IMG/VR virus record: IMGVR_UViG_2529293139_000005
DNA length: 19,601 bases
Source of the DNA: a virus
Lineage: Duplodnaviria > Heunggongvirae > Uroviricota > Caudoviricetes
Strand: one strand, 5' to 3'
Part shown: positions 1 to 18,639 of the stretch, one piece after another
Layout of the letters: each line of letters opens with the position of its first letter
How positions within the stretch are numbered: the first letter of the stretch is position 1
Notes under the pieces: generated by a model
What the model was told of the DNA's origin: nothing
Seen by the model: the letters and a program-made list of their open reading frames with translations, nothing else
Database searches by the model: none
Program-made: the position numbers and the translations under genes

Positions 1-729
1 TTATTTGCTCTCTTCTGGATTCACCCAGGCAACTCGTCGCTGCATGTCGATTTGTTGCCATTCCAGATTTATGATGTTCGACTTTCTCAGACCAGTTGCC
101 AGCGCAAACTTGACGACAGATTTCAGTGGTTCGGGGCACTCATCAATAAGGCGTTTTGCTTCCTCCTTTTCCAGCCATCTGACTCGCTTGTTTCTGACCG
201 CTGGTATCTTGATGACAGGCGCTTTTTCCAGCCACTTCCAGTCGCGTTCTGCAGCACGGAGAATGGCCTTTATCATGGCAAGATGCTTTGCCTTTGTCTG
301 AGTTGATACTGGCTTTGGTTCATAAACAGGCAGTTCTTTACCTTTCCTGATGGCGGCCTGAACTTTCTGTTTCCATATTTCTTTCGTCTTTCTGTTATGC
401 ATTCTGCTTACAGCAGAGTAAATCTTTGCCTCCGAGATATCTTTAAGCCTTATATCCTCAAAATGTTCAAGCCAGAACTCAATCCGGCTTTTATCTGAAT
501 CGAGAGATTTTTTATCAGCTTTTTCCTCAAGCCATCTTAGGCAGGCCTCTTCAAAAGTGACATCAGGTAAATCCCCTAGCTTTTCTACTCGCCAGAGTTC
601 TGCTTTTCGCTTGTCGTGCAACTCCTGAGCTTGCCGCTTGTCCTTTGTGCCAAGAGATTCCTTAATTCGTTTCCCGCCCGGGAGCGAATACGAGGCATAC
701 CATATTTCATTTCTGCGGAAGAGTGACAT
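1..729 (-). CDS. int: Tyrosine integrase, N-terminal portion only (242 aa); frame closed by TAA at bases 3..1, catalytic domain not encoded; probable truncated or pseudogene int
   Basis: ORF 1..729(-) starts [33 protein letters not shown], the N-terminus typical of lambdoid IntD-type integrases (full length about 390 aa from memory). 729 bp = 242 codons plus stop, so the stop lies at the window edge. Confidence 0.7.
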
Positions 730-956
730 TTTCTTTCCTCTGTTATGCCATCACCCGCGCTCACCTGGACAGTATGCAGCGGAGACTGAAGCGCCGCAAT
801 GCAGGCTTGCCGTGTTGTGAGGTAAGGAGATTTTGGCTTGGTTGGATCTTTACGTGTTGCCTGTAGGCGGCCTGTTCGTATCCAGTTGGTGGCGGTTGGT
901 CTGGATATCTTAAGAAACTGACAGGCCTCATCGAGTGTGAGGCTGTATGATTCCAT
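585..956 (-). CDS. xis: Excisionase-like HTH protein (AlpA/Xis family); start taken at internal Met [31 protein letters not shown]; overlaps int start
   Basis: ORF 585..986(-); HTH segment [21 protein letters not shown] resembles phage excisionase/AlpA DNA-binding domains; position directly upstream of int as in lambdoid phages. Start and extent uncertain. Confidence 0.55.
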
Positions 957-1206
957 GGTTACCTCTGCTTTTTGAACGCATGTCACGTAACTTCTTAATG
1001 TGTTCTGCCGTTTCGATCTCTTCTGCTATCCGATCTGCATCAGCTTTATTCACAGGTTCAAAGTCATGATTAAAGCGGAACATGCTGGCGATACATGTTC
1101 TGCCTTTTCGGATGTAGTGAACTTTGTTGTGGGTAGAACGCAGGATTTTGCAGGGAGTGCCGTGGTGGTCGACGTACCAGGTGTTAGGAAAAATGATTCT
1201 GAACAT
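928..1206 (-). CDS. Hypothetical early-left protein (92 aa)
   Basis: ORF 928..1206(-), same strand and operon orientation as flanking phage genes; no family recognised. Confidence 0.35.
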   Translation of the reverse strand: MFRIIFPNTWYVDHHGTPCKILRSTHNKVHYIRKGRTCIASMFRFNHDFEPVNKADADRIAEEIETAEHIKKLRDMRSKSRGNHGIIQPHTR

Positions 1207-1253
1207 TTTTACACCTCAGTTGGACGATGTTGAAATTTGCTGCTTTGAGGCCA

Positions 1254-1472
1254 TCACAGTCCCCATTGTTTGTTCTTAAGTTCGATCTCCTCCTGGCAAC
1301 TCGCACAAGTCCGACAACCCTGAACAGCCAGGCGTCTTCGCTCATCTATCGGATCGCCACACTCACAACAATGAGTTGCGGATACAGTCTGGTAGTTCAG
1401 ACGACGCATTTTTATTGCTGTATTGCGCTGTAATTCTTCGATTTCTGATGCTGAATCAATGATGTCTGCCAT
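1254..1472 (-). CDS. TraR/DksA-family C4 zinc-finger protein (72 aa)
   Basis: MADIIDSASEIEELQRNTAIKMRRLNYQ...CCECGDPIDERRRLAVQGCRTCASC: CxxC...CxxC zinc ribbon preceded by a coiled region, as in phage TraR-like proteins. Confidence 0.7.
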   Translation of the reverse strand: MADIIDSASEIEELQRNTAIKMRRLNYQTVSATHCCECGDPIDERRRLAVQGCRTCASCQEEIELKNKQWGL

Positions 1473-1570
1473 CTTTCATTAATCCCTGAATTGTTGGTTA
1501 ATACGCTTGAGGGTAAATGCGAATAATAAAAAAGGAGCCTGTAGCTCCCTGATGATTTTGCTTTTCATGT

Positions 1571-1852
1571 TCACCGTTCCTTAAAGACGCCGTTCAACAT
1601 GCCGATCGCCAGGCTTAAATGAGTCGGTGTGAATCCCATCAGCGTTACCGTTTCGCGGTGCTTCTTTAGTACGCTACGGCAAATGTCATCGACGTTTTTA
1701 TCCGGAAACTGCTGTCTGGCTTTTTTGATTTCAGAATTAGCCTGACGGGCAATGCTGCGAAGGGCGTTTTCTTGCTGAGGTGTCATTGAACAAGCCCCAT
1801 GTCGGCAAGCATAAGCACACAGAATATGAAGCCCGCTGCCAGAAAAATGCAT
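1571..1852 (-). CDS. Hypothetical early-left protein; start uncertain (ATG 1852 giving 93 aa, or ATG 1786 giving 71 aa beginning MTPQQENALRSIARQ)
   Basis: ORF 1571..1852(-); both candidate ATGs sit in ATGA start/stop overlaps with upstream reading frames. Confidence 0.45.
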   Translation of the reverse strand: MHFSGSGLHILCAYACRHGACSMTPQQENALRSIARQANSEIKKARQQFPDKNVDDICRSVLKKHRETVTLMGFTPTHLSLAIGMLNGVFKER

Positions 1853-1862
1853 TCAGTGGTTG

Positions 1863-2054
1863 TCATACCTGGTCTCTCTCATCTGCTTCTGCTTTCGCCA
1901 CCATCATTTCCAGCTTTTGTGAAAGGGATGCGGCTAACGTGTGAAATTCTTCGTCTGTTTCTACTGGTATTGGCACAAACCTGACTCCAATTTGAGCGAG
2001 GCTATGTGCCATCTCGATACTCGTTCTTAACTCAACGGGAGATGCTTTGTGCAT
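1863..2054 (-). CDS. Hypothetical small early-left protein (63 aa)
   Basis: ORF 1863..2054(-) with GAGGGG about 5 nt upstream of the ATG; lies in the small-ORF cluster left of exo as in lambda. Confidence 0.45.
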   Translation of the reverse strand: MHKASPVELRTSIEMAHSLAQIGVRFVPIPVETDEEFHTLAASLSQKLEMMVAKAEADERDQV

Positions 2055-2215
2055 ACAGCCCCTCGTTTATTATTTATCTCCTCAGCCAGCCGCTGGGCTT
2101 TCAGTGGATTTTGGATAACAGAAAGGCCGGGAAATACCCAGCCTCGCTTTGTAACGGAGTAGACGAAAGTGATCGCGCCTACCCGGATATTATCGTGAGG
2201 ATGCGTCATCGCCAT
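2027..2215 (-). CDS. Hypothetical small protein (62 aa) immediately upstream of exo; overlaps neighbours
   Basis: ORF 2027..2215(-); overlaps exo start by 10 nt and the 1863..2054 ORF by 28 nt, so at most weakly supported. Confidence 0.3.
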
Positions 2216-2886
2216 TGCTCCCCAAATACAAAACCAATTTCAGCCAGTGCCTCGTCCATTTTTTCGATGAACTCCGGCACCATCTCGTCAAAACTCGCCA
2301 TGTACTTTTCATTCCGCTCAATCACGACATAATGCAGGCCTTCACGCTTCATGCGCGGGTCATAGTTGGCAAAGTACCAGGCATCTTTTCGCGTCACCCA
2401 CATGCTGTACTGCACCTGGGCCATGTAAGCCGATTTTATTGCCTCGAAACCACCGAGCCGGAATTTCATGAAATCCCGGGAGGTAAACGGGCATTTCAGT
2501 TCAAGGCCGTTGCCGTCACTGCATAAACCATCGGGAGAGCAGGCGGTGCGCATATTTTCGTCGCGATAGATGATCGGGGATTCAGTAATATTCACGCTGG
2601 AAGTGAATTCAAACAGGGTTCTGGCGTCGTTCTCGTACTGTTTTCCCCAGGCCAGCGCCTTAGCATTAACTTCCGGAGCCACACCGGTGCAAACCTCAGC
2701 CAGCAGGGTGTGGAAGTAGGACATTTTCATGTCAGGCCACTTCTTTCCTGAGCGGGGCTTTGCTATCACGTTGTGAACTTCTGAAGCGGTGATGACGCCG
2801 AGCCGTAATTTGTGCCATGCATCATCCCCCTGTTCGACAGCTCTCACGTCGATCCCGGTACGCTGCAGGATAATGTCCGGTGTCAT
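2206..2886 (-). CDS. exo: Lambda-type exonuclease (Red alpha, 226 aa)
   Basis: [40 protein letters not shown]... matches lambda Exo essentially along its whole length (from memory); ATGA overlap with bet stop. Confidence 0.95.
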
Positions 2887-3668
2887 GCAGCCACCTTCTG
2901 CTCAGAGGCTTTCTGTTTCAGGAATCCAAGAGCTTTCACTGCTTCGGCCTGTGTCAGTTCTGACGATGCGCGAATGTCGCGGCGAAATATCTGGGAACAG
3001 AGCGGCAATAAGTCGTCATCCCATGTTTTATCCAGGGCAATCAGCAGAGTGTTAATCTCCTGCATGGTTTCATCGTTAACCGGAGTGATGTCGCGTTCCG
3101 GCTGACGTTCTGCAGTGTATGCGGTATTTTCGACAATGCGCTCGGCTTCATCCTTGTCATAGATACCAGCAAATCCGAAGGCCAGACGGGCACACTGAAT
3201 CATGGCTTTATGACGTAACATCCGTTTGGGATGCGACTGCCACGGTCCCGTGATTTCTCTGCCTTCGCGGGTTTTGAATGGTTCGCGGCGACATTCATCC
3301 ATCCACTCGGTAACGCAGATCGGATGATTGCGGTCCTTGCGGTAAATCCGGCATGTACAGGATTCATTGTCCTGCTCAAAGTCCATGCCATCAAACTGCT
3401 GGTTTTCATTGATGATGCGGGACCAGCCATCAACGCCCACCACCGGAACGATGCCGTTCTGCTTATCAGGAAAGGCGTAAATTTCTTTCGTCCACGGATT
3501 AAGGCCGTACTGGTTGGCGACGATCAGCAATGCGATGAACTGCGCATCGCTGGCATCGCCTTTAAATGCCGTCTGGCGAAGAGTGGTGATCAGTTCCTGT
3601 GGGTCGACAGAATCCATGCCGACACGTTCAGCCAGCTTCCCTGCCAGCGTTGCGAGTGCTGTACTCAT
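2883..3668 (-). CDS. bet: Lambda-type single-strand annealing protein Bet (Red beta, 261 aa)
   Basis: [66 protein letters not shown]... matches lambda Bet from memory. Confidence 0.95.
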
Positions 3669-3673
3669 TCGTT

Positions 3674-3970
3674 TTATACCTCTGAATCAATATCAACCTG
3701 GTGGTGAGCAATGGTTTCAACCATGTACCGGATGTGTTCTGCCATGCGCTCCTGAAACTCAACATCGTCATCAAACGCACGGGTAATGGCTTTTTTGCTG
3801 GCCCCGTGGCGTTGCAAATGATCGATGCATAGCGATTCAAACAGGTGCTGGGGCAGGCCTTTTTCCATGTCGTCTGCCAGTTCTGCCTCTTTCTCTTCAC
3901 GGGCGATCTGCTGGTAGTGACGCGCCCAGCTCTGAGCCTCAAGACGATCCTGAATGTAATAAGCGTTCAT
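3674..3970 (-). CDS. gam: Gam, RecBCD inhibitor (98 aa, GamS-length form)
   Basis: [60 protein letters not shown]... matches lambda Gam from memory; 5-nt gap to bet start. Confidence 0.9.
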
Positions 3971-4046
3971 GGCTGAACTCCTGAAAATGGCTGTGAAAAT
4001 AGCGCCCGCGAAATGCCAGGCTGATTAGGAAAACAGGAAAGGGGGG

Positions 4047-4424
4047 TTAGTGATTCAGGCCGTTACCGCGTCCGTCGAGAAAAACTTCCACGAGCAAATC
4101 ACGGGTATAAGTGCGCTCGATGCCGCGATGCAGATAAAGCCGTCCGCGTAAATTAGCTGATGCAGTCCAGGTACCATCTTTGTGTTTGACCAGCATTCCT
4201 GGCATGACCGCACCTCGATTAACGGTCTGCGTTCCGTAATGTTGATGAACCATAAAAACTCCTGCCCGTAAGCTGGGCTGCTGAACATATAGAGACTTCT
4301 GCGCGTATTCAGGCGGTGGATGGCCGCCGGTTGTCATAACTAAGCCGCCTCGTTGAAGCGACTGAGGTATGAGGTGTTGAGTTGATTTCAGCTGGTCACA
4401 CCGACGTTCACGCGTCCGTTTCAC
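4047..4424 (-). CDS. Hypothetical early-left protein with Arg-rich N-terminus (possible N-like antiterminator, or a kil-position gene); start uncertain (TTG 4457, GTG 4424 or ATG 4337)
   Basis: ORF 4047..4457(-) begins at TTG. GTG at 4424 is preceded by GGGGAG at 8-nt spacing and would give MKRTRERRCDQLK, reminiscent of N-protein Arg-rich motifs; ATG 4337 has GAGG upstream. First gene downstream of the putative PL. Confidence 0.4.
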   Translation of the reverse strand: MKRTRERRCDQLKSTQHLIPQSLQRGGLVMTTGGHPPPEYAQKSLYVQQPSLRAGVFMVHQHYGTQTVNRGAVMPGMLVKHKDGTWTASANLRGRLYLHRGIERTYTRDLLVEVFLDGRGNGLNH

Positions 4425-4523
4425 CCCTCGCACTCCCCGGAGCCTGCCGAAATTCAAGCTGCGGATCTAAGCGGTCATCGCAACGGTGAATCAGGCGGTT
4501 GCCGTATCGTTGTGTTGTTGCGA

Positions 4524-4580
4524 CATGGTAATAATAGCTATTGCTATTGGTGGTATCAATACTTATTGCTATTGATTGAT
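4524..4580 (-). promoter_or_regulatory. Candidate PL promoter with operators (OL): minus-strand -35 TTGATA (plus 4554..4559), 17-bp spacer, -10 TATTAT (plus 4531..4536); TTGCTATT repeats
   Basis: Sigma70-like hexamers with 17-bp spacer read off the minus strand; 13-mer TTGCTATTGATTG at 4566..4578 is identical to 7216..7228 in the cI-cro intergenic region; palindrome AATAGCTATT at 4533..4542. Confidence 0.45.
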
Positions 4581-4699
4581 GTGTTTTGATATTAACTGTT
4601 TGATAGCAAAAAGAATTAATTTTGTGACTTGCATCGCATAGCGATAACTGAAGGGAGGTTGTGGTGGTTTTTCGAACGGTTTGTGTGATGAGGGGAGGG

Positions 4700-4730
4700 G
4701 ACAAAAGAAAACCCGGCACGGTGGCCGGGC
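4700..4730 (-). terminator. Rho-independent terminator ending the cI-kinase cassette transcript
   Basis: Minus strand reads CCCGGC-caccgt-GCCGGG followed by TTTTCTTTTGT; GC stem 4712..4717 / 4724..4729. Confidence 0.6.
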
Positions 4731-4894
4731 TAGATCTTAAAGTATTTATCTTTTAGAGATGTAGATGCAAAATTTTTTGCCTTTGAAAATTTTTTGTCAT
4801 CAGAAGAGCTTATGAACTCATCTTTTTTGTAGGGAACCGCTAATGCTGCATCACGTCTGCGAGGCAGCTTACTTACTTCCTCGCACTTTTTCAT
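4730..4894 (-). CDS. Small basic protein (54 aa, MKKCEEVSKLPRRRDAALAVPYKKDEFISSSDDKKFSKAKNFASTSLKDKYFKI); third gene of the kinase cassette; absent from the supplied ORF track
   Basis: Hand translation of the minus strand; ATG 4894..4892 lies 2 nt after the kinase TGA (4899..4897) with AAGGA 8 nt upstream; TAG stop overlaps the terminator stem. Confidence 0.4.
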   Translation of the reverse strand: MKKCEEVSKLPRRRDAALAVPYKKDEFISSSDDKKFSKAKNFASTSLKDKYFKI

Positions 4895-4896
4895 GA

Positions 4897-5943
4897 TCAG
4901 TTATCCTTTAATAACCTATACAGTTTTGTAGGGGTACATCCTGAGGATATTGTTAAGTTCGTAGCACGCCTTTTCCGCCCACCATCGTATAAACGAAAAC
5001 CAGTAGTAGACGAATTTTCTGCGTCAAAAACTATAGACAGTATAACGTCCCCAGACTTTTTTTGCCATTCATATGTGCCGTTAGTTGGTTTTGTCATCTG
5101 TAGACGCCAGTCAAGAACGCCATCACTTATAGCTGAGAGATCGTTTAGTACGTCTAGTACGGATTGATATCTTTCATTTGGATCTACATGAATGCATTTG
5201 TTTACTATTGTTATCAATTTTTTATGTATGTGGGAAGGATACTCTTTTAATGGATAGGAGCCATTAATTATCGACTCTCTGAGTTGTTCAATCGTTCTAA
5301 ATGCAGATCTTTCTCTTTCAAAATTATCATATCCAACACACATTCTATATATGGTTAATCCTGCCTGATATATGTCATATGTGAAATTATAATCATTTGT
5401 TGATAAAGAAAAATATTCCGGTGGCACATGAAAATGATATCCAAACTCAGGCGCAGCTCTCGATTCCTCATTGACTAACTGAGACAATCCAAAGTCAGAT
5501 AGCATGGCCTCATTTCTGTTTGATATCATGATGTTATTAGGTTTTATATCAAAATGCATAAGACCTTTTGAGTGTATATGATAAAGCCCACTTAAAAATT
5601 GAATAGAATACCGTATTATCTCCCTGCTCGTAAGATTAATCTTTTTTATTAATTGGTTTAGCGAACCATTATGATAAAATGGCATGGCTATATAGATATT
5701 GCTCTCACATTGAGCAGCATACTGAACTTGCACAATATTTGGATGTGCATGTTTATAGAGAAGCCTTGCTTCATTAAAGTAGTCGTCGTGGTTAGTGTTT
5801 TCTTTTTTTTCTATTTCTTTAATCACCAAGTCATGAGCTAGGTGTCTGTCATGAGCCAGATATACTTTTGAAAAACAACCCTGTTCTTCTAGATCACGAA
5901 TCCATTCGAATGCTACATCAGCTCTTTTGTATGGAGTCAGCAT
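4897..5943 (-). CDS. Hanks-type (eukaryotic-like) Ser/Thr protein kinase, 348 aa, with C-terminal extension of unknown function
   Basis: Kinase motifs in order: LVIKE (beta3 Lys), HFDIKPNN (catalytic loop, non-RD), SDFGLS (DFG), PPEY (APE-like); strong GGAGG RBS; AT-rich relative to neighbours. Confidence 0.85.
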   Translation of the reverse strand: MLTPYKRADVAFEWIRDLEEQGCFSKVYLAHDRHLAHDLVIKEIEKKENTNHDDYFNEARLLYKHAHPNIVQVQYAAQCESNIYIAMPFYHNGSLNQLIKKINLTSREIIRYSIQFLSGLYHIHSKGLMHFDIKPNNIMISNRNEAMLSDFGLSQLVNEESRAAPEFGYHFHVPPEYFSLSTNDYNFTYDIYQAGLTIYRMCVGYDNFERERSAFRTIEQLRESIINGSYPLKEYPSHIHKKLITIVNKCIHVDPNERYQSVLDVLNDLSAISDGVLDWRLQMTKPTNGTYEWQKKSGDVILSIVFDAENSSTTGFRLYDGGRKRRATNLTISSGCTPTKLYRLLKDN

Positions 5944-6398
5944 CCCCTTACCTCCGCAGATAGTGCAGCCAAAACAGCTTCATTTGTTTCAGTTGTAAAA
6001 CCAGAATTATCGATTCCATTTATATTACGGTGTGACTTCAATATTTCTTTATACTCGATCTCTGTTAGGTTCAATGATGACTTCATACCAGATTTTCTAA
6101 TGGTGTAATATCTTCTTACATCACTGCTTGAAAATGCTTCTTGAATAACAGCTTCTATATAAAGGCGGTCAATGCTAAGATTATCAGAGTTTGATTCAGT
6201 AACGCGTATAGCAGCTAATTCAACATTATATAAATTAAGAATGTCGAGGATGTTATTTCGCACATACTTTAATTTTTCTGGTGTGTCTAAGGTCGAAGGT
6301 ATTTTAATAACATCAACACATTTGAGTGCAGACTCATCAGTGCAATATACAACAAAAGATGTAACTTTGGGCGCCGCCCTAACACCTAGTATTCTCAT
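5937..6398 (-). CDS. Hypothetical protein (153 aa), first gene of the kinase cassette, translationally coupled to the kinase
   Basis: ORF 5937..6398(-); its TGA (5939..5937) lies 2 nt inside the kinase ATG (5943..5941); no recognisable domain; AT-rich. Confidence 0.65.
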   Translation of the reverse strand: MRILGVRAAPKVTSFVVYCTDESALKCVDVIKIPSTLDTPEKLKYVRNNILDILNLYNVELAAIRVTESNSDNLSIDRLYIEAVIQEAFSSSDVRRYYTIRKSGMKSSLNLTEIEYKEILKSHRNINGIDNSGFTTETNEAVLAALSAEVRGC

Positions 6399-6478
6399 TT
6401 TTTATATCCCATTTTAGAATCAGGCTGCGTTTCTGCAGCCTCTCTCATCACCCAAATGTCTAATCAGGCTATTATTGA

Positions 6479-7171
6479 TTATCCATGTTTCCTGTATGTT
6501 TGCGGCATGCTCCCAATAACTTTCCCGAAGATAAACACCCGGTTCATCTCGTCTTTCTCGATTGGGTCCCACGGTGAGTAGCTCTTGTTATCAGAGATAA
6601 CCAGCAGTTTATCCTTCATCATTTGCAGGCGCTTAACATGGGCTGTGTCGTCATACAGAAACGCATAGATACCATCACCGTCGAAAGATTTAACAGTGAT
6701 ATCAACGAACAGAAGATCACCTGGTTCGATCGTTCCTGACATGCTGTCACCGCGTACGTTAATGATGCGGATATTTTCTGCCTTCCTGCCATCGAACATG
6801 TGACGAGCATCGTCAAACGAGTACTCAACCGAGCGTAGAACTTCTACAAACTCACGGTTGATGACTCCCGGCCCGGCACTCACTTCTATATCAAGAACGT
6901 CAATCTTGAAGTATTTGGGATGGTTGGCAGCAGGCTTCCCTGATTGTTGACCGTCATTTCTCATCGGGCCTATGCCTGATGAGAGCCACTCTGTTCGAAC
7001 ACCCAATGCATTAGCTATTTCAACAATTTTTGTTGAGCCGCGTGCGTTGCCGCTTGTCAGTCTCCAGATTGTGGGTTGAGCTACGCCAGACGCCTTTGCA
7101 AGAGCGCCTTGAGACATTCCAGATTGTTCCATCGCTAGGTTTAAGCGATCAGCAAGAGTTTCTTTTTTCAT
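6479..7171 (-). CDS. cI: CI-type prophage repressor: N-terminal XRE-family HTH plus C-terminal LexA-like S24 autopeptidase domain (about 230 aa from Met at 7171)
   Basis: HTH MSQGALAKASGVAQPTIWRL; S24-like segment with RGDSMSG (Ser) and downstream VKRL (Lys); no SD before ATG 7171 (possibly leaderless like lambda cI); the ORF-track start at 7207 would fall inside the promoter. Confidence 0.85.
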   Translation of the reverse strand: MKKETLADRLNLAMEQSGMSQGALAKASGVAQPTIWRLTSGNARGSTKIVEIANALGVRTEWLSSGIGPMRNDGQQSGKPAANHPKYFKIDVLDIEVSAGPGVINREFVEVLRSVEYSFDDARHMFDGRKAENIRIINVRGDSMSGTIEPGDLLFVDITVKSFDGDGIYAFLYDDTAHVKRLQMMKDKLLVISDNKSYSPWDPIEKDEMNRVFIFGKVIGSMPQTYRKHG

Positions 7172-7180
7172 AAGTTTTAA

Positions 7181-7250
7181 TTTATACGCTTGCGTATTGA
7201 TGGTCAAAACACGTTTTGCTATTGATTGGGTTAATACGCATTGCTATTAT
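7181..7250. promoter_or_regulatory. Divergent PRM/PR promoter and operator (OR) region between cI and cro
   Basis: Plus-strand PR candidate: -35 TTGATT 7222..7227, 17-bp spacer, -10 TATTAT 7245..7250; minus-strand PRM candidate -10 TATAAA (plus 7181..7186); near-palindrome ATACGCTTGCGTAT; TTGCTATT at 7216 and 7241. Confidence 0.5.
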
Positions 7251-7281
7251 CCATTCATTGTAATACCAATAGGAATTGATA

Positions 7282-7509
7282 ATGACAAATCAAACCATTC
7301 AACTCGCAATCAGTATTACAGGTAGTCAAAAACGACTGGCAGATCTATGCGGTGTAGCCCAGCCCACTGTTTGGCGTTGGCTACACGGTGGCGGAATTGA
7401 TGCCCGCTATGTAATGAAAATTGTCTCAGCCACTGGTGGAAAGATTAAACCAGCAGATATTCGTCCCGACCTTGCACCATTGTTTAACGCGAGTAATTCT
7501 GCCGCCTAA
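7282..7509 (+). CDS. cro: Cro-like HTH regulator (75 aa from ATG 7282)
   Basis: MTNQTIQLAISITGSQKRLADLCGVAQPTVWRWLHGG with HTH; AGGAA RBS 7271..7275; divergent from cI. Confidence 0.8.
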   Translation: MTNQTIQLAISITGSQKRLADLCGVAQPTVWRWLHGGGIDARYVMKIVSATGGKIKPADIRPDLAPLFNASNSAA

Positions 7510-7539
7510 ACTGCGGCGTTAACTGATAAGGCAATGATT

Positions 7540-8079
7540 ATGCAACCACTTACATACCAACAGACTAGCGGATTTAGCCCGACTGCGGTGATAAATCGTT
7601 CTCAAATAAAACAGGTGCCAGGCCACGAAAAAATCCGTGATGCCGTTCGCGCCTGGTCGGCTGCAGATAATCAGGATGTTGTTGCCGCACTCATTGTGAA
7701 TGAGTATCGGGAGCAGGGCGGCGGCACCATCGATTTCCCTGATGATGTCAGCCGTGCACGCCAGAAGCTGTTCCGCTTCCTCGATAACAAATTCGATTCT
7801 GAAAAATACCGAAATAACGTGCGTGAACTGACCCCGGCAATTCTGGCGGTACTACCGCTGGAATATCGCGGCCACCTGGTTGAGCAGGATAGCTTCATGG
7901 CTCGGCTGGCTGAAATGGAAAAGGAACTCTGTGAGGCAAAGCAGGCGGTCATTCTCAACGCACCACGCCACCAGAAACTGAAGGAGATGAGTGAAGGCAT
8001 TGTGTCGATGTTTCGAGTGGACCCGGATCTGGCTGGTCCATTGATGGCGATGGTCACCACCATGCTGGGGGCAATATGA
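7540..8079 (+). CDS. YdaT-like protein in the cII position (about 180 aa)
   Basis: Sits immediately after cro where lambda has cII; segments EYREQGGG and LTPAILAVLPLEYRGHL resemble the YdaT family as I recall it; start 7534 or 7540. Confidence 0.55.
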   Translation: MQPLTYQQTSGFSPTAVINRSQIKQVPGHEKIRDAVRAWSAADNQDVVAALIVNEYREQGGGTIDFPDDVSRARQKLFRFLDNKFDSEKYRNNVRELTPAILAVLPLEYRGHLVEQDSFMARLAEMEKELCEAKQAVILNAPRHQKLKEMSEGIVSMFRVDPDLAGPLMAMVTTMLGAI

Positions 8080-8085
8080 CAGGTT

Positions 8086-8178
8086 CAAAAATGGCGAAAG
8101 TCGGTCTGCGGGAACAGAACCGACTTTCAGGTGCAAATCGTAACACACTCATTGCGGGAGGAATTATGGCAAACACTG
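8086..8178 (-). ncRNA. Candidate OOP-like antisense RNA, defined by a minus-strand intrinsic terminator; promoter and 5' end not established
   Basis: Perfect 10-bp inverted repeat GAAAGTCGGT (8096..8105) / ACCGACTTTC (8119..8128) with 13-nt loop; on the minus strand it is followed by GCCATTTTTG; no minus-strand gene upstream to terminate. Confidence 0.35.
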
Positions 8179-9095
8179 CTGAGATATTCAATTTTCCAGT
8201 GCCGGATGCGGCACAAAAGGAGCCGCGCGTGGCAGATCTCGATGATGGTTATACGCGCATTGCAAATGAGTTGCTGGAAGCTGTGATGCTGGCCGGATTA
8301 ACACAGCACCAGCTTCTGGTCTTCCTGGCTGTCATGCGCAAAACATATGGCTTTAATAAAAAACTGGATTGGGTGAGCAACGAGCAACTGTCCGGATTGA
8401 CCGGGATATTACCGCACAAGTGTTCTGCTGCAAAAAGTGTTCTGGTAAAGCGTGGGATTTTGATTCAGAGCGGGCGGAATATCGGTATTAATAATGTGGT
8501 CAGTGAATGGTCAACATTACCCGAATCAGGTAAGAAAAATAAAGTTTACCTGAAAGAGGTAAATTTACCTGAATCAGGTAAGAAAAGTTTACCCAAATCA
8601 GGTAAAGGCGTTTACCCGAATCAGGTAAACACAAAAGACAAACTAACAAAAGACAATATAAAACCTTTTTCGTCCGAGAATTCTGGCGAATCCTCTGACC
8701 AACCAGAAAACGATCTTCCTGTGGTGAAACCAGATGCTGCAATTCAGAGCGGCAGCAAGTGGGGGACAGCAGAAGACCTGACCGCCGCAGAGTGGATGTT
8801 TGACATGGTGAAGACCATCGCACCATCAGCCAGAAAACCGAATTTTGCAGGGTGGGCTAACGATATCCGCCTGATGCGTGAACGTGACGGACGTAACCAC
8901 CGCGACATGTGCGTGCTTTTCCGCTGGGCATGCCAGGACAACTTCTGGTCCGGTAACGTGCTAAGTCCGGCCAAACTCCGCGACAAGTGGACCCAACTCG
9001 AAATCAACCGTAACAAGCAACAGGCAGGCATGATAGCCAGCAAACCAAAACTCGACCTGACAAACACTGACTGGATTTACGGGGTGGATTTATGA
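8166..9095 (+). CDS. O: Replication initiator O (309 aa from ATG 8166); non-lambda N-terminal domain, lambda-type C-terminal domain
   Basis: GGGAGG RBS 8156..8161; N-terminus MANTAEIFNFPVPD parallels lambda O MTNTAKILNF; C-terminal WANDIRLMRERDGRNHRDMCVLFRWACQDNFWSGNVLSPAKLRDKWTQLEINRNKQQAG matches lambda O from memory. Confidence 0.9.
   Translation: MANTAEIFNFPVPDAAQKEPRVADLDDGYTRIANELLEAVMLAGLTQHQLLVFLAVMRKTYGFNKKLDWVSNEQLSGLTGILPHKCSAAKSVLVKRGILIQSGRNIGINNVVSEWSTLPESGKKNKVYLKEVNLPESGKKSLPKSGKGVYPNQVNTKDKLTKDNIKPFSSENSGESSDQPENDLPVVKPDAAIQSGSKWGTAEDLTAAEWMFDMVKTIAPSARKPNFAGWANDIRLMRERDGRNHRDMCVLFRWACQDNFWSGNVLSPAKLRDKWTQLEINRNKQQAGMIASKPKLDLTNTDWIYGVDL
8517..8629. repeat. Replication origin iterons inside O: four 18-bp palindromic TTACC-N8-GGTAA repeats plus one degenerate copy, followed by an A+T-rich stretch
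   Basis: ttacccgaatcaggtaag 8517..8534; ttacctgaatcaggtaag 8565..8582; ttacccaaatcaggtaaa 8589..8606; ttacccgaatcaggtaaa 8612..8629; degenerate copy 8546..8563; A/T-rich 8630..8675. Confidence 0.85.
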
Positions 9096-9793
9096 AAAAC
9101 ATCGCCGCACAGATGGTTAACTTTGACCGTGAGCAGATGCGTCGGATCGCCAACAACATGCCGGAACAGTACGACGAAAAGCCGCAGGTACAGCAGGTAG
9201 CGCAGATCATCAACGGTGTGTTCAGCCAGTTACTGGCAACTTTCCCGGCGAGCCTGGCTAACCGTGACCAGAATGAACTGAACGAAATCCGCCGCCAGTG
9301 GGTGCTGGCTTTCCGGGAAAACGGGATCACCACAATGGAACAGGTTAACGCTGGAATGCGCGTAGCCCGTCGGCAGAATCGACCATTCCTGCCATCACCC
9401 GGGCAGTTTGTCGCCTGGTGCCGGGAAGAAGCATCCGTTACCGCCGGGCTGCCAAACGCCAGCGAGCTGGTTGATATGGTTTACGAGTATTGCCGGAAGC
9501 GCGGGCTGTATCCGGATGCAGAGTCTTATCCGTGGAAATCAAACGCGCACTACTGGCTGGTTACCAACCTGTATCAGAACATGCGGGCCAATGCGTTGAC
9601 TGACGCGGAATTACGGCGCAAGGCTGCCGATGAACTGTCCTGTATGACCGCACGAATTAACCGTGGTGAGGCTATACCTGAACCAGTAAAACAACTTCCT
9701 GTCATGGGCGGTAGACCTCTAAATCGTGCACAGGCTCTGGCGAAGATCGCAGAAATCAAAGCTAAGTTTGGGCTGAAAGGAGCAAGGGTATGA
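9092..9793 (+). CDS. P: Replication protein P (helicase loader), lambda-type, 233 aa
   Basis: MKNIAAQMVNFDREQMRRIANNMPEQYDEKPQVQQVAQIINGVFSQLLATF... matches lambda P from memory; ATGA overlap with O. Confidence 0.95.
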   Translation: MKNIAAQMVNFDREQMRRIANNMPEQYDEKPQVQQVAQIINGVFSQLLATFPASLANRDQNELNEIRRQWVLAFRENGITTMEQVNAGMRVARRQNRPFLPSPGQFVAWCREEASVTAGLPNASELVDMVYEYCRKRGLYPDAESYPWKSNAHYWLVTNLYQNMRANALTDAELRRKAADELSCMTARINRGEAIPEPVKQLPVMGGRPLNRAQALAKIAEIKAKFGLKGARV

Positions 9794-10092
9794 CGGGCAA
9801 AGAGGCAATTATTCATTACCTGGGGACTCATAAGAAATTCTGTGCGCAGGACGTTGCCGCGGTAACAGGCGCAACGGTAACCAGCATAAATCAGGCTGCG
9901 GCTAAAATGGCACGGGCAGGTCTTCTGGTTATCGAAGGTAAGGTCTGGCGAACGGTGTATTACCGGTTTGCTACCAGAGAAGAACGGGAAGGAAAGGTGA
10001 GCACGAATCTGATTTTTAAGGAGTGTCGCCAGAGTGCCGCGATGAAACGGGTATTGAGGGTATATAAAAGAACATCAATGGGTACACAATGA
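9790..10092 (+). CDS. ren: Ren (100 aa)
   Basis: MTGKEAIIHYLGTHKKFCAQDVAAVTGATVTSINQAAAKMARAGLLVIEGKVWRTVYYRFATREEREGK matches lambda Ren from memory; ATGA overlap with P. Confidence 0.9.
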   Translation: MTGKEAIIHYLGTHKKFCAQDVAAVTGATVTSINQAAAKMARAGLLVIEGKVWRTVYYRFATREEREGKVSTNLIFKECRQSAAMKRVLRVYKRTSMGTQ

Positions 10093-10159
10093 TGAAACAG
10101 GTGAGTTGAGTTCAAACTGTAGTACAATTCTCTCCAGTTTGAACAGGAAAGAATATTCT

Positions 10160-10492
10160 ATGAACCCTTATATTTATCTTGGTGGTGCAATACTTGCAGA
10201 GGTCATTGGTACAACCTTAATGAAGTTTTCAGAAGGTTTTACACGGTTATGGCCATCTGTTGGTACAATTATTTGTTATTGTGCATCATTCTGGTTATTA
10301 GCTCAGACGCTGGCTTATATTCCTACAGGGATTGCTTATGCTATCTGGTCAGGAGTCGGTATTGTCCTGATTAGCTTACTGTCATGGGGACTTTTCGGCC
10401 AACGGCTGGACCTGCCAGCCATTATAGGCATGATGTTGATTTGTGCCGGTGTGTTGGTTATTAATTTATTGTCACGAAGCACACCACATTAA
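10160..10492 (+). CDS. emrE: Small multidrug resistance efflux transporter EmrE (110 aa)
   Basis: MNPYIYLGGAILAEVIGTTLMKFSEGFTRLWPSVGTIICYCASFWLLAQTLAYIPTGIAYAIWSGVGIVLISLLSWG... matches E. coli EmrE from memory; AGGAAAG RBS. Confidence 0.95.
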   Translation: MNPYIYLGGAILAEVIGTTLMKFSEGFTRLWPSVGTIICYCASFWLLAQTLAYIPTGIAYAIWSGVGIVLISLLSWGLFGQRLDLPAIIGMMLICAGVLVINLLSRSTPH

Positions 10493-10523
10493 AAATAATT
10501 TGTTTCTAAACGACTAAAATATG

Positions 10524-10565
10524 GAGGCTCTTATATTTATATGAGCCTCGTTTTATGCTTTTTGT
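10524..10565 (+). terminator. Rho-independent terminator after emrE
   Basis: GAGGCTC (10524..10530), 12-nt loop, GAGCCTC (10543..10549), then GTTTTATGCTTTTT. Confidence 0.6.
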
Positions 10566-10748
10566 TAATGTCTTTATTTTTTTATGTATTCTTTTGTGCT
10601 TTCAAGATTATGGCGTAAGAAAATTGCAATACGATTATTGTTGTATATTCAAGATAATGTGACCTTAATTGTCTTTTTAAATAAAAATTAAACAAAAATT
10701 ATATCCCACCACTAAGGTTTATAAAAGCATACGTTAGCAGGTGTCACC

Positions 10749-12275
10749 ATGAAAAAAGCCATAGCATATATGCGATTTTCATCACCAGGTCAGATGTCTG
10801 GCGACTCATTAAACCGACAGAGAAGACTTATTGCTGAATGGTTAAAGGTAAATAGTGATTATTATCTTGATACCATAACATATGAAGATTTAGGATTAAG
10901 TGCATTCAAAGGAAAGCATGCACAATCAGGAGCTTTTTCGGAATTTTTAGATGCTATAGAGCATGGTTATATATTGCCAGGAACTACATTGTTAGTTGAA
11001 AGTCTGGACAGACTTTCAAGAGAAAAAGTCGGTGAAGCGATTGAACGTCTGAAATTGATTTTGAATCACGGTATTGATGTTATAACTCTTTGCGACAATA
11101 CAGTCTATAATATTGACTCTTTGAATGAGCCATATTCATTAATAAAAGCCATACTTATAGCACAAAGGGCAAATGAAGAAAGCGAGATAAAGTCAAGTCG
11201 GGTTAAATTATCATGGAAGAAAAAACGGCAGGATGCACTGGAATCAGGTACGATTATGACGGCGTCTTGTCCGAGATGGCTCTCCTTAGATGACAAAAGA
11301 ACGGCTTTTGTTCCAGACCCCGACAGGGTGAAAACTATTGAGCTAATTTTTAAACTCAGGATGGAAAGGCGCTCATTGAATGCAATAGCCAAGTATTTAA
11401 ATGATCATGCTGTAAAGAATTTCTCAGGAAAAGAAAGTGCATGGGGACCTTCTGTAATTGAAAAATTATTAGCGAATAAAGCTCTGATAGGTATATGCGT
11501 ACCTTCATATCGTGCAAGAGGTAAAGGAATAAGTGAAATCGCTGGCTATTATCCCAGAGTCATATCAGATGATTTGTTTTACGCTGTACAGGAAATTCGG
11601 TTGGCACCTTTTGGTATTAGCAATAGTAGCAAAAATCCTATGTTGATAAATCTACTTCGAACAGTTATGAAGTGCGAGGCTTGTGGTAATACCATGATTG
11701 TTCATGCGGTATCTGGAAGTTTGCATGGCTATTATGTTTGTCCGATGAGAAGACTGCATCGATGTGACAGGCCATCAATAAAGAGAGATTTGGTTGATTA
11801 TAATATCATTAATGAGTTGCTTTTTAATTGTAGTAAAATCCAACCAGTTGAAAACAAGAAAGATGCTAATGAAACTTTAGAGTTGAAAATTATTGAGCTC
11901 CAGATGAAAATTAATAATTTAATTGCTGCATTATCTGTTGCGCCTGAAGTTACCGCTATAGCAGAAAAAATCAGAGTATTAGATAAGGAATTACGAAGGG
12001 CTTCTGTATCATTAAAAACTTTGAAGAGTAAAGCGGTGAGTTCACTTGGTGATTTTCATGCTATTGACTTAACCAGTAAAAATGGGCGAGAGCTATGTCG
12101 TACACTTGCCTATAAAACATTCGAAAAAATCATAATCAATACAGATAATAAAACCTGTGATATCTATTTTATGAATGGCATTGTTTTTAAACACTATCCT
12201 TTAATGAAAACAATATCCGCCCAGCAGGCGATAAGTACTCTCAAATATATGGTTGATGGTGAGGTTTATTTTTGA
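10749..12275 (+). CDS. ybcK: Large serine recombinase (508 aa), YbcK-like
   Basis: N-terminal resolvase-type catalytic region AIAYMRFSSPGQ (Ser), large central domain, Cys cluster CEACGN...CPMRRLHRC (zinc ribbon), coiled-coil C-terminus; AT-rich gene downstream of emrE as in DLP12. Confidence 0.85.
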   Translation: MKKAIAYMRFSSPGQMSGDSLNRQRRLIAEWLKVNSDYYLDTITYEDLGLSAFKGKHAQSGAFSEFLDAIEHGYILPGTTLLVESLDRLSREKVGEAIERLKLILNHGIDVITLCDNTVYNIDSLNEPYSLIKAILIAQRANEESEIKSSRVKLSWKKKRQDALESGTIMTASCPRWLSLDDKRTAFVPDPDRVKTIELIFKLRMERRSLNAIAKYLNDHAVKNFSGKESAWGPSVIEKLLANKALIGICVPSYRARGKGISEIAGYYPRVISDDLFYAVQEIRLAPFGISNSSKNPMLINLLRTVMKCEACGNTMIVHAVSGSLHGYYVCPMRRLHRCDRPSIKRDLVDYNIINELLFNCSKIQPVENKKDANETLELKIIELQMKINNLIAALSVAPEVTAIAEKIRVLDKELRRASVSLKTLKSKAVSSLGDFHAIDLTSKNGRELCRTLAYKTFEKIIINTDNKTCDIYFMNGIVFKHYPLMKTISAQQAISTLKYMVDGEVYF

Positions 12276-12386
12276 GTAATAATCACTTTTTCAACCGTGC
12301 TATAGTAAGAAAGTTAGGTAAGTACAATAAAATTATCTATCCTGAACGAAGCGTCCTGAGCTATGGTTTTACTATAGAGACTGCCA

Positions 12387-12710
12387 ATGGATGCTGGCGT
12401 TCTCGTTCTAGCAGTTCAACAATACCCAATCACAAAACAATTCACTGATAACGAACTTTGCACACTCGCCTGGTTATGGCGAGCAGGGAATGTGATGTTA
12501 ATTACCTACCAGAACGTTACTCCTCTTCTTCAGGTTGCGGAGCATCGTGAAGCTGGTCGCTTCACTTCTATCGAGCAAGAATACCCCCAGATACTCAATA
12601 AGGCACAGGCAATCCTTGCCAGAGAAACGGCACATGTAAAATTCCGGCCGTGGCAGGATGATAAGTGGAGTCGAGTTTTGCCGCATTTACGTTCGGATCG
12701 ATTACAGTAG
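12387..12710 (+). CDS. Hypothetical protein (107 aa)
   Basis: ORF 12387..12710(+); weak RBS; no family recognised. Confidence 0.3.
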   Translation: MDAGVLVLAVQQYPITKQFTDNELCTLAWLWRAGNVMLITYQNVTPLLQVAEHREAGRFTSIEQEYPQILNKAQAILARETAHVKFRPWQDDKWSRVLPHLRSDRLQ

Positions 12711-13171
12711 ATTCCAATTAACAATGAGAAACACATAGCCACCCCGTGGTATTGAAACCATATAATGTTGGATTTGAAAACAGATCTTTTTCCATGTATT
12801 AATAACTACATCCCCGCGAGTGATTCAAAAAGGAGGGCCCAATTTTGTCCGAGTTTTTGTATTCCCCCGCATGCCGCTGCGGAGCACTACATCTGAGTGT
12901 CTGACTAGGGGATAAAATTAGACTGGATAGTGAGAAGAAAGTGGCGTGCTAGGCTGTGCCGAGTGCTACCAGTACACCTTGGGGGTGTGCAGCTTTCGCC
13001 GAGACTGTAGTGGGTATCGGTTAATGCACGAAAAACCGAGAGGTCAGACAACCAATTTGCCGTAGGATTGTTTCCGGTGCGATACCGGTGTACTAACTGA
13101 AAGCAATGCGAAAAAGCATAAACTCGGTCCTTCAGTCGCCCTACACACTATTTACTAAGAAGGGCTAAAGC

Positions 13172-13528
13172 ATGGATACAATTATCACATGGATGGGAGA
13201 TCGTCTGTTGGGGTGGATAACAAACAAATCCGATCTGCGGCAGAGGGCAATCACTGGATTAACTCCTGCGATTTATTCAACAATTTTATATACTGAAAAA
13301 TTAAAACGTGGTGAGCCTAATAACCCAAACGAAGAAGAAAAACTTTATAGGCTTTGGTATGAAGCGTCTTCCCAAGTCGTAGACTTTGATCGAGAGCTGG
13401 CTAAAAGATGTTTAGATAAATCAGAATATTGGCTTCATTCTGAATTATATAGCCCTGAGAAAGTTGGAGAGCTAAACATTTCTTTGGTTGGTATGAAGGC
13501 AACGCTTGAAGGAATAAAGCACAATTAA
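13172..13528 (+). CDS. Hypothetical protein (118 aa)
   Basis: ORF 13172..13528(+) with GAAGGG upstream of ATG; no family recognised. Confidence 0.45.
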   Translation: MDTIITWMGDRLLGWITNKSDLRQRAITGLTPAIYSTILYTEKLKRGEPNNPNEEEKLYRLWYEASSQVVDFDRELAKRCLDKSEYWLHSELYSPEKVGELNISLVGMKATLEGIKHN

Positions 13529-13715
13529 AACCTTTGATTTGCGATAATCAACTCGCCATAATCATGTCATCGGAGCCTGAACAACTCCGGTGACTTCTGC
13601 GCTAAACGGGGACGTTTATGCGCACACACAATCCAAACTCTCTTCTCCCTCCACAGATGCAGAAATGCACCTGCGATATATTGTATCCAGCGTTTGACCT
13701 CTGCGGAGGTGAAGC

Positions 13716-14171
13716 GTGAATCTCCCACAAGATGGCATCAAATTACATCGCGGTAACTTCACCGCTATCGGTCGGCAGATCCAGCCTTATCTGGAGGAGG
13801 GCAAATGCTTTCGCATGGTGCTTAAACCGTGGCGTGAGAAACGCAGTCTTTCCCAGAATGCACTCAGCCACATGTGGTACAGCGAAATCAGTGAATACCT
13901 CATCAGCAGGGGTAAAACGTTCGCTACTCCAGCTTGGGTAAAAGATGCTCTCAAACACACATATCTCGGTTATGAAACCAAAGACCTGGTTGATGTCGTA
14001 ACCGGTGATATCACCACTATCCAGTCGTTACGCCATACCTCCGATCTTGATACCGGAGAGATGTATGTCTTCCTGTGTAAGGTTGAAGCCTGGGCGGTGA
14101 ATATTGGCTGCCACCTGACTATTCCGCAGAGCTGCGAGTTCCAGCAGCTCCGTGACAAGCAGGAGGCGTAA
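13716..14171 (+). CDS. ybcN: YbcN-like nin-region protein (151 aa), GTG start
   Basis: GGAGG RBS 13705..13709 before GTG 13716; [57 protein letters not shown]... matches my recollection of DLP12 YbcN. Confidence 0.75.
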
Positions 14172-14341
14172 TGGCTACACCGCTTATTCGTGTCATGAAC
14201 GGACACATCTACAGAGTACCAAATCGTCGTAAGCGTAAACCGGAGCTGAAACCTTCCGAAATACCAACACTGCTCGGATATACCGCCAGCCTGGTTGATA
14301 AAAAATGGTTGCGACTGGCAGCAAGGAGGAATCATGGCTGA
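14171..14341 (+). CDS. ninE: NinE-like small protein (56 aa); absent from the supplied ORF track
   Basis: Hand translation [56 protein letters not shown]; AGGAGG RBS 14161..14166; TAATG overlap with ybcN; overlaps ybcO start. Confidence 0.7.
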   Translation: MATPLIRVMNGHIYRVPNRRKRKPELKPSEIPTLLGYTASLVDKKWLRLAARRNHG

Positions 14342-14624
14342 TTTGAGAAAAGCAGCGCGTAGTCGGGAATGCCAGGTAAGAATCCCTGGCGTATGTAATG
14401 GTAACCCTGAAACGTCTGTACTGGCACATATCCGGCTGACTGGATTGTGCGGCACCGGTACCAAACCGCCAGACCTGATTGCCACCATTGCATGTTCTGC
14501 CTGCCACGACGAAATCGACCGCCGCACACATTTTGTCGATGCTGCATATGCAAAAGAATGCGCGCTGGAAGGTATGGCGAGAACACAGGTTATCTGGCTG
14601 AAAGAGGGGGTTATTAAGGCGTGA
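14334..14624 (+). CDS. ybcO: YbcO-like nin-region protein (96 aa), Cys/His-rich
   Basis: [67 protein letters not shown]; AAGGAGG RBS 14323..14329. Confidence 0.85.
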
Positions 14625-14983
14625 ATACCTACAGCATCACATTACCCTGGCCTCCGAGCAATAATCGCTATTACCGCCATAATCGCGGGCGCACGCACGT
14701 CAGCGCAGAGGGGCAGGCATACCGCGATAACGTCGCCCGAATCATTAAAAACGCAATGCTGGATATCGGCTTGGCTATGCCTGTGAAAATCCGCATTGAG
14801 TGCCACATGCCGGATCGCCGTCGCCGTGACCTGGATAATCTGCAAAAAGCCGCTTTTGACGCACTCACTAAAGCAGGTTTCTGGCTGGATGATGCTCAGG
14901 TCGTTGATTACCGCGTTGTGAAGATGCCTGTTACCAAAGGTGGGAGGCTGGAACTGACCATCACCGAAATGGGGAATGAATGA
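14621..14983 (+). CDS. rusA: Holliday-junction resolvase RusA (120 aa)
   Basis: [100 protein letters not shown] matches E. coli RusA from memory. Confidence 0.95.
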
Positions 14984-15120
14984 TGTTTGAGTTTTATATG
15001 GCAGAACGTCTTCGCCACCGCTGGGGGCGTCTGCGCTTATATCGTTTCCCCGGTTCTGTTTTGACCGATTACCGAATACTGAAGAATTACGCCAAAACCC
15101 TGACAGGAGCAGGAGTATGA
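14980..15120 (+). CDS. ylcG: YlcG-like small protein (46 aa); absent from the supplied ORF track
   Basis: Hand translation [46 protein letters not shown]; ATG overlaps the rusA TGA. Confidence 0.6.
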
Positions 15121-15205
15121 AGTCAGAGATAACAATCAACTAATACTGTTTCGTTGATTTTTGCTTGTAATTGGCGTTCTGGTCTGATTTTTGTGGAGTA
15201 AGTTG

Positions 15206-15505
15206 ATGCGTGATATTCAGATGGTTCTTGAGCGTTGGGGAGCGTGGGCGGCTAATAATCATGAAGATGTGACCTGGTCGTCCATTGCCGCCGGTTTTAA
15301 GGGATTAATTACTTCAAAAGTAAAATCTCGCCCGCAATGTTGTGACGATGACGCGATGATCATTTGCGGGTGCATGGCCCGTCTGAAAAAGAACAACAGC
15401 GATTTGCACGATTTATTAGTAGATTATTATGTAGTCGGTATGACATTCATGTCACTGGCAGGTAAGCATTGCTGCTCTGATGGTTATATCGGGAAAAGGT
15501 TATAG
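15206..15505 (+). CDS. quuD: Late antiterminator Q (QuuD/phage-82 type), closed after 99 codons by in-frame TAG; frame stays open to TAA 15587..15589
   Basis: GGAG RBS 15195..15198; [99 protein letters not shown] then TAG 15503..15505, followed in frame by KAEGIIEGMLMALDIRLEMDIVVNNSN. Confidence 0.8.
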
Positions 15506-15589
15506 AAGGCTGAGGGCATAATTGAAGGGATGTTAATGGCATTAGATATCCGGTTAGAGATGGATATCGTTGTTAATAACTCTAATTAA

Positions 15590-15760
15590 TATGCCAATTG
15601 TTTATTAAAAATGGGGCGTTGAGACGCCCCCAAAAATAAAGGGTAATATATAACAGAAGGTTTATATAGTTAGAAGCAAGGTTGTGCTTCTAAAGGAAGT
15701 GGCTTGAGGGAGCCACTTATATGTTGGGGAGGCAACGCCTCCCGCAACATATCTTTTTCG
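15590..15760 (+). promoter_or_regulatory. Putative late promoter / Q-utilisation region with hairpins and a terminator-like element (hairpin 15721..15750 followed by T-run)
   Basis: Directly after Q as in lambdoid phages; hairpins GGGGCG-ttgaga-CGCCCC and ATGTTGGGGAGGC-aac-GCCTCCCGCAACAT followed by ATCTTTTT; promoter hexamers not assigned. Confidence 0.4.
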
Positions 15761-15768
15761 TAATCAGA

Positions 15769-16866
15769 TTAGAACTGGTAAACCAGACCTACAGCAACGA
15801 TGTCATCAGTGCTTACACTGAGTGCTTTAGTGAAGTCATTTTTGTCAAGCAGGTTGATTTTGTAATCAACGAAAGTAGACATATTTTTGTTGAAGTAATA
15901 GGTTGCACCTACATCAACATATTTGACTAAGTCCTGATCGCCCCATACTCCAAGATCCTTACCTTTAGATTGCAGGTAAGCAACGGACGGACGCAGACCG
16001 AAATCGAACTGATATTGTGCAACAGCTTCGAAGTTTTGGGCTTTATTAGCAACGAAGTGATCAGCAAATACAGTCATATTCTGGGTTTCAGAATAGGTAG
16101 TGGCCAGGTAAATGTTGTTAGCGTCATATTTCAGACCTGCGGCCCAAACTTCTGCATTTTTACCGGAAGCAAATACTTCAGGAAGAACTTTCCCTGCATT
16201 AACTTGAGTGTCGGTACGATCAGATTTCGCATAAGTTGCACCGATACCGAATCCTTCGTATTCATAGGTAGCAGAGAAACCGAAGCCATCACCGTTACCT
16301 TCAGTGTAGTTATCGAAATCGCTACGATCGTTTTTGCCTTGGTACTGAGCAGCAAAATTCAGACCATCAACCAGACCAAAGAAGTCGTTGTTACGATAGG
16401 TTGCAACACCTGTGGTGCGACCAGTCATGAATACATCTGTTTGGGTCCAGGTATCGCCACCGAATTCTGGCAGAACGTCGGTCCATGCACCAATATCGTA
16501 TGCTACACCGTAGTTACGGCCATAATCGATGGAGCCGTAGTCACCGAATTTCAGGCCAGCGAAGGCAAGACGGGTTTTATCTTTGGAGGAACCTTGAGAT
16601 TCAGCGCGGTTGCCTTTGAATTCATATTCCCACTGACCGAAACCAGTCAGTTGATCGTTGATTTGGGTTTCACCTTTGAAGCCAAGACGGGCATAAGTAG
16701 TATCACCATCATCTGCATCATTAGAGGAGAAGTAGTGCTTAGCATTAACTTTCCCGTACAGATCCAGCTTGTTACTGTCTTTATTATAAATTTCAGCTGC
16801 CTGAGCAGACATCGCCATCAGTACTGATGCAGCTACAGCAGAAATTGCCACTGTTAATTTTTTCAT
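15769..16866 (-). CDS. nmpC: Outer-membrane general porin NmpC/OmpC family (365 aa precursor from [23 protein letters not shown])
   Basis: Signal peptide then [24 protein letters not shown]..., C-terminal VGLVYQF typical of enterobacterial porins; the ORF-track start at 16926 is upstream of the signal-peptide Met. Confidence 0.9.
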
Positions 16867-17292: not shown

Positions 17293-17325
17293 AAACCCGC
17301 CGTCGAGCGGGTTTTTCCATTTTTT
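17293..17325 (+). terminator. Rho-independent terminator upstream of the lysis cassette
   Basis: AAACCCGC-cgtcga-GCGGGTTT followed by TTCCATTTTTT on the plus strand. Confidence 0.5.
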
Positions 17326-17437
17326 GAGTCTCGATATTAGCTGATAACCCAATACCTGAGTTATTCACTGACTCCGAGTCTGTTACGTTTCGTAGTATTC
17401 CCTCAATTTACACCCGCTTTGTCTGCGAGGTGGGGTT

Positions 17438-18608: not shown

Positions 18609-18639
18609 AGCTGCCCATATCGATGGGCAACTCATGCAA

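Follow-up and report, generated by a model that had tools for sequence, protein, structure and literature searches.

A premature stop codon in the intD-type integrase gene of a cryptic DLP12-family prophage of Escherichia coli E1520

The integrase gene at the left end of the window (the whole 19,601-nucleotide stretch of DNA that was analyzed) is a full-length gene carrying one nonsense substitution, not a physical remnant. Very probably, it is an intD-type gene, related to the int gene of P22, that lies in a DLP12-family cryptic prophage at argU and was nulled by S243*. The first-pass annotation described an integrase reduced to its N-terminal part. This description holds for the predicted 242-aa product only; the remaining 144 codons lie in frame outside the window. 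As the window starts on the stop codon, a one-base nonsense allele resembles a truncated gene, an appearance that is here cleanly traced to the window edge. The loss of an integrase in a cryptic lambdoid prophage is an already known, textbook kind of event, and the gene described here represents the well-known DLP12 integrase in a null form, with little significance beyond the annotation of the strain. The prophage appears to have been caught very early in integrase loss, with no decay after the stop and with the attachment sites and the excisionase gene intact. The features are listed in Table 1.

Table 1. Features of the int region and of the prophage, in window coordinates
Feature	Position	Strand	Remarks
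Premature ochre stop, int codon 243	1..3	-	TAA from TCA (Ser243); seen in the alignments with 14EC033 intD, in the four-way alignment and in the K-12 nucleotide alignment
int (intD type), codons 1-242	4..729	-	N-terminal arm-binding and core-binding parts and the first third of the catalytic domain; Arg215 inside, Lys242 last
P22-type excisionase (xis), 123 aa	585..956	-	Shares 145 bases with the start of int, in a different frame; appears intact
Left and central parts of the DLP12-family lambdoid prophage at argU	1..19175		int, xis, exo-bet-gam-kil, Ser/Thr kinase, cI/cro, O/P, emrE, ybcK, nin region, rusA, Q, porin, lysis genes, bor
Antiterminator Q (quuD), cut at codon 100 of 127	15206..15505	+	Amber, CAG to TAG at 15503-15505
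IS1, right-end 426 bases	19176..19601	-	Terminal repeat and insB fragment; Pfam DDE_Tnp_IS1 / InsA match

The integrase gene across the window edge

The int frame is listed among the open reading frames at window 1..729 on the minus strand, with an ATG start and 242 aa. Translation confirms that it ends with TAA at the window edge after 242 codons, as previously noted: the first three letters of the window are TTA, which reads TAA on the other strand, and the stop codon occupies bases 3-1 of the minus strand. The frame makes up the 5' two-thirds of the integrase gene. All 242 residues of the product align at 99% identity with the 387-aa intD annotated in thousands of E. coli chromosomes, which rules out a chance open reading frame at 1-729. 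The full-length relatives of the E1520 integrase are 387 aa long, in good agreement with the length of about 390 aa first given for related integrases.

When the E1520 scaffold is aligned with the full-length intD locus of strain 14EC033, the two are collinear to the end of the gene and TCA versus TAA is the sole difference at the break. Codon 243 was changed from TCA to TAA by a single C-to-A transversion, which on the plus strand puts T in place of G at window base 2. Past the stop, 144 sense codons and the natural TAA follow directly outside window base 1 in the same, unbroken frame, and the tRNA-Arg gene argU (anticodon tct) begins 15 bp beyond the natural int stop. This uninterrupted arrangement rules out an insertion sequence or deletion in int hidden by the window edge. 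The upstream DNA had been singled out as a place to look for the remaining codons or for an insertion element; it holds the former, in frame and followed by argU, and no IS.

The closest point of reference is the 387-aa IntD of K-12 DLP12, which occupies the same site, 15 bp from argU and beside fimZ, and has an equal coding length. Alignment with IntD, another check proposed at the outset, identifies the stop as S243* and gives three nucleotide differences in all between E1520 int and the intD of K-12 MG1655. One is synonymous and the other two change a codon each (Gly92 to Asp and Ser243 to stop). The stretch after the stop is base-for-base equal to K-12 intD, with no changes. As no decay has accumulated after the stop, the nonsense event is likely to be recent. 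An 81-base probe centered on the stop found its counterpart in 2,745 complete E. coli genomes, none of which matched it exactly, and the allele is thus private to E1520 within the complete-genome collection. Together, these observations point to a recent, strain-private mutation.

Several lines of evidence bear on whether the stop is real. All 6,729 bases of window 1-6729 that were compared are identical to E. coli E1520 scaffold GL871772.1 (GCA_000190815.1). In an exact-sequence look-up, the 242-aa protein was found on this scaffold and on two contigs, from runs SRR024130 and SRR033634, which overlap the window by 3,795 and 921 bases, respectively, without a mismatch. The cluster listing gives the protein as EGB34738.1, 'intD protein [Escherichia coli E1520]'. 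The stop is therefore the same in the NCBI scaffold and in the Logan assemblies of the two runs, each of the three built separately. Both runs probably represent the same strain. Their agreement thus excludes errors of assembly, but would also be seen if the sequenced stock had acquired the mutation.

We consider it very unlikely that an error in sequencing or in the consensus produced the stop and that E1520 truly has an intact 387-aa IntD. The substitution does lengthen a run of A (TCAAA to TAAAA), the codons downstream of it are perfectly preserved, and no other genome among those probed has the allele, all of which would fit an error. The E1520 draft presumably dates from the early pyrosequencing era, to judge from its 2011-type accessions. 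However, the three assemblies agree base for base at the stop, and the change is a substitution, not an indel of the type typical of homopolymer errors; a pyrosequencing miscall at codon 243 would need two compensating errors, which is unlikely. The 30-odd other genes of the window are without frameshifts, indicating that the consensus is of good quality, and the stop in Q is likewise a clean substitution, in that case C to T. The first-pass annotation had regarded an int that continues in frame upstream as a sign of a sequencing or assembly artefact. The frame does continue, but an artefact is unlikely given that the stop is also present in the two read-set assemblies. We therefore retain the reading of a genuine nonsense allele.

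Predicted product, excisionase and attachment sites

The catalytic domain profile PF00589 (172 positions) is covered from position 1 to 171 by intact IntD (E = 5e-47). The match of the 242-aa product is significant (E = 6e-12) but covers profile positions 1-61 only, and the untranslated remainder covers positions 64-171 (E = 9e-28). We further aligned IntD with lambda Int, the prototype of the tyrosine recombinases, whose catalytic residue numbering (R212, K235, H308, R311, H333, and Y342) we take as established. The two proteins are only 27% identical, yet they share the same domain order and all six catalytic positions align, opposite R215, K242, H314, R317, W340, and Y349 of IntD, with a Trp in IntD at the position of lambda His333. 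Arg215 and Lys242 are encoded before the stop, whereas His314, Arg317, Trp340, and the nucleophile Tyr349 are encoded after it.

The E1520 product thus ends right after the hairpin Lys242, before the His-x-x-Arg motif, the Trp/His position and the nucleophilic tyrosine, and the complete R-K-H-R-H/W-Y set is not present in one polypeptide. The earlier suggestion that the catalytic residues, in the C-terminal half of related integrases, are lost is correct for most of them, although Arg215 and Lys242 are kept. We consider E1520 int to be a tyrosine recombinase by descent whose predicted product is not a competent recombinase. Lacking His314, Arg317, Trp340, and Tyr349, the product should be unable to cleave or rejoin DNA, given the chemistry of tyrosine recombinases. 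In the mechanism that we propose, one C-to-A transversion turns Ser243 into an ochre codon and translation would end after Lys242, leaving a product predicted to retain the DNA-binding domains and Arg215, without catalysis.

An active integrase could still be made if the UAA were read through or suppressed, or if the 242-aa fragment were complemented by a re-initiated C-terminal fragment. The C-terminal coding sequence is intact, and on one contig the gene caller predicted a 139-aa open reading frame with the PF00589 domain that starts from a GTG at Val249, directly after the stop. Nevertheless, the UAA is followed by A with no evident recoding signal, no Shine-Dalgarno-like sequence was seen by eye before the GTG, and the split falls in the beta-hairpin that bears the catalytic lysine. 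We regard residual activity by these routes as highly improbable, the least credible of the alternatives considered, and treat the allele as a null.

The other parts of the excision module appear to be in order. A 47-bp exact repeat of the 3' end of argU, which corresponds to attR, is located between ompT and envY, and both att cores are present. Integration at argU is evident from the position of int beside the tRNA gene and from the recurrence of the 3' end of this gene, as a direct repeat, at the opposite boundary. By sequence, an intact xis frame lies upstream of int and overlaps it. The xis protein is 100% identical over 123 aa to those of the isolated phages ev243, 2G7b, PhiR30_1, PhiR26_1, and Turner. 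RefSeq annotates only a 66-base fragment at this position ('HTH domain, incomplete'). A pseudogene, as implied by the RefSeq and K-12 annotations, is ruled out for E1520 by the full 123-aa frame equal to that of the isolated phages, and the xis of DLP12-type prophages looks under-annotated rather than dead.

The relationship with isolated phages extends to the integrase. The conceptual full-length E1520 integrase is 99% identical (383 of 387 residues) to the integrase of ev243. In ev243, 2G7b, and the PhiR-series phages (Nesevirus and relatives), the integrases are uninterrupted and reside in complete genomes of 45-50 kb, unlike the E1520 gene, which has a stop and resides in a remnant of ~24 kb. 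To judge from these comparisons, and apart from a single base, the int-xis-att segment of E1520 is the module that works in live phages.

In K-12, where IntD is intact, the excision of DLP12 was found in fewer than 1 per 100,000 cells (PMC3105296), and excision is inducible (PMC12607911). From the predicted loss of catalysis, the E1520 allele should abolish the residual self-excision seen in K-12 DLP12. Because both att cores and xis are intact, the inability to excise that was suggested at the outset may not be permanent: excision could probably be rescued by a compatible integrase in trans, and reversion of the int stop could also restore it. The net effect of the mutation would be a loss of residual self-excision that is reversible by Int in trans. 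If E1520 indeed behaves as excision-negative, it would offer a naturally int-null partner of K-12 DLP12 with which to study the contribution of residual excision.

Separately, appY and ompT are inside the prophage boundaries (locus L006, 15764-18185), where attR separates ompT from envY. The ompT gene of the isolated phage ev243 adjoins int across the attachment site (locus L012, 4374-5327), and the same arrangement is shared with 2G7b and the PhiR-series phages. The presence of ompT within the prophage bounds and beside int in ev243 suggests that it is phage-borne cargo in the DLP12 family.

Loss of phage functions and retention of cargo

The element is a defective (cryptic) DLP12-family prophage without late or structural genes. 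Window 3-19175 is 98.4% identical to the argU prophage of strain KSC207. In a gene-by-gene comparison by tblastn, all genes from DUF4222 to bor are full length except int and Q; the Ser/Thr kinase stands outside this comparison, being frameshifted in KSC207, and is an intact 348-aa gene in E1520. Synteny comparison shows a gene order common to K-12 DLP12. The genes common to the two prophages are emrE, ybcK, ybcN, ninE, ybcO, rusA, ylcG, quuD, the porin, essD, rrrD, rzpD, bor, appY, and ompT. Unlike K-12 DLP12, the E1520 prophage retains the early region (xis, exo, bet, gam, kil, cI, cro, O, and P), lacks the nohD-tfaX remnant that K-12 retains, has a porin gene that is not interrupted by IS5, and carries an amber codon in Q. 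The cargo genes emrE, porin, bor, Ser/Thr kinase, appY, and ompT are intact. The initial description of a defective prophage that keeps its cargo is therefore borne out, as are the stop in Q (an in-frame TAG) and the IS1 at the right end.

Like the int stop, the amber codon in Q is rare. The stretch around the amber codon is present in 2,400 complete genomes, none of which matches the 81-mer of E1520 exactly, and the allele is private to E1520 within this set. A 99-aa Q seemed widespread in an exact-protein look-up, but every match outside E1520 runs off a contig end without a stop codon. These matches are contig-end breaks and thus do not represent the TAG allele.

The similarity to KSC207 ends exactly where the IS1 terminal repeat starts. 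The window itself ends at a contig break inside IS1 and is followed by a gap of N in the scaffold. Sequences on either side of the gap overlap (IS1 at locus L006, 13971-15213), and the gap is probably artificial. Beyond it lie the other end of IS1 and then appY, ompT, envY, ybcH, and nfrA. The right flank of IS1 shares 99.9% identity with K-12, and its beginning corresponds to the tip of the tfaX remnant. The nine bases that flank IS1 differ between the two sides (GGGAATTCC versus CATAATAAA), with no target-site duplication. These unequal flanks argue for an IS-associated deletion and against a simple insertion. No terminase, head, or tail genes were found between bor and appY, and an IS1-associated deletion evidently took everything between these two genes, and with it every gene for packaging, head, and tail. 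The gap in the scaffold falls within a multicopy IS at this join, and the order bor-IS1-appY rests on the scaffolding and on the far side, which matches the right end of K-12 DLP12 perfectly. In the proposed sequence of events, the int stop would have arisen in an element already incapable of making phage owing to the Q amber and the bor-appY deletion.

These losses raise the possibility that the int and Q nulls are adaptive. They could lock in the cargo and block the expression of the lysis genes, or the 242-aa fragment could bind att sites as an inhibitor of related integrases and mediate superinfection or integration exclusion at argU. Two strain-private nonsense mutations have hit two key control genes of one 19-kb element, every one of the cargo genes listed above is intact, and intD has been disrupted independently in other strains. 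In MIN6 it is split by ISEc22, an element of the IS66 family (locus L013, 1064-4690), and by annotation the same holds for SFE8, ES7, ES8, and QA-1986 83. On the other hand, an inhibitory fragment would have to be stable and expressed, whereas this one is cut inside the catalytic domain, and such a cut usually destabilizes a protein. Since the late genes had been lost already, there is no obvious ground for strong selection against the activity of Q or int. In a comparison with eight related loci, aimed at an excess of nonsense changes among the substitutions private to E1520, the window has 55 positions that differ from all eight, many of them clustered and probably shared with unsampled genomes. 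The data fit neutral decay as well as the domestication suggested in the first-pass annotation. We see only a slim chance of an adaptive origin, and selection for locking in the cargo is a minor possibility. The loss of integrase function by S243* in an already defective prophage remains the preferred explanation.

A null integrase in a lambdoid remnant is also represented by intQ of the Qin prophage and by the split intD of MIN6. Qin, in which intQ is inactive, shows no detectable excision (PMC3105296). E1520 differs from both in mechanism, which is a single nonsense substitution and not an IS insertion or larger decay. In the DLP12 family, intD has been knocked out at least twice independently, by a nonsense mutation in E1520 and by ISEc22 in another lineage. 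This recurrence fits the established view of prophage decay. A literature search on strain E1520 together with the prophage found nothing relevant.

Variable genes within the prophage

Three other regions of the window deserve mention. The slot between kil and the cI-type repressor (window 4897-5943, minus strand) varies among related prophages. In E1520 it is occupied by the intact Ser/Thr kinase and a 153-aa open reading frame, in strain H10 by a SIR2-family protein, and in strain Z1322HEC0002 by a HipA-family kinase and a DUF3037 protein. From this gene content, the slot looks like a hot spot for defense or exclusion cargo.

The ybcK gene (window 10749-12275, plus strand) adjoins emrE and encodes an intact 508-aa large serine recombinase with Resolvase, Recombinase, and Zn-ribbon domains. 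The protein adds a second recombinase to the prophage and is unrelated to the argU att sites.

The nmpC/ompC-type porin gene (window 15769-16926, minus strand) is uninterrupted in E1520, and in K-12 the corresponding copy is followed by IS5. The E1520 gene is only 90% identical to the KSC207 copy and is the most divergent gene of the window, which suggests allelic replacement by recombination.
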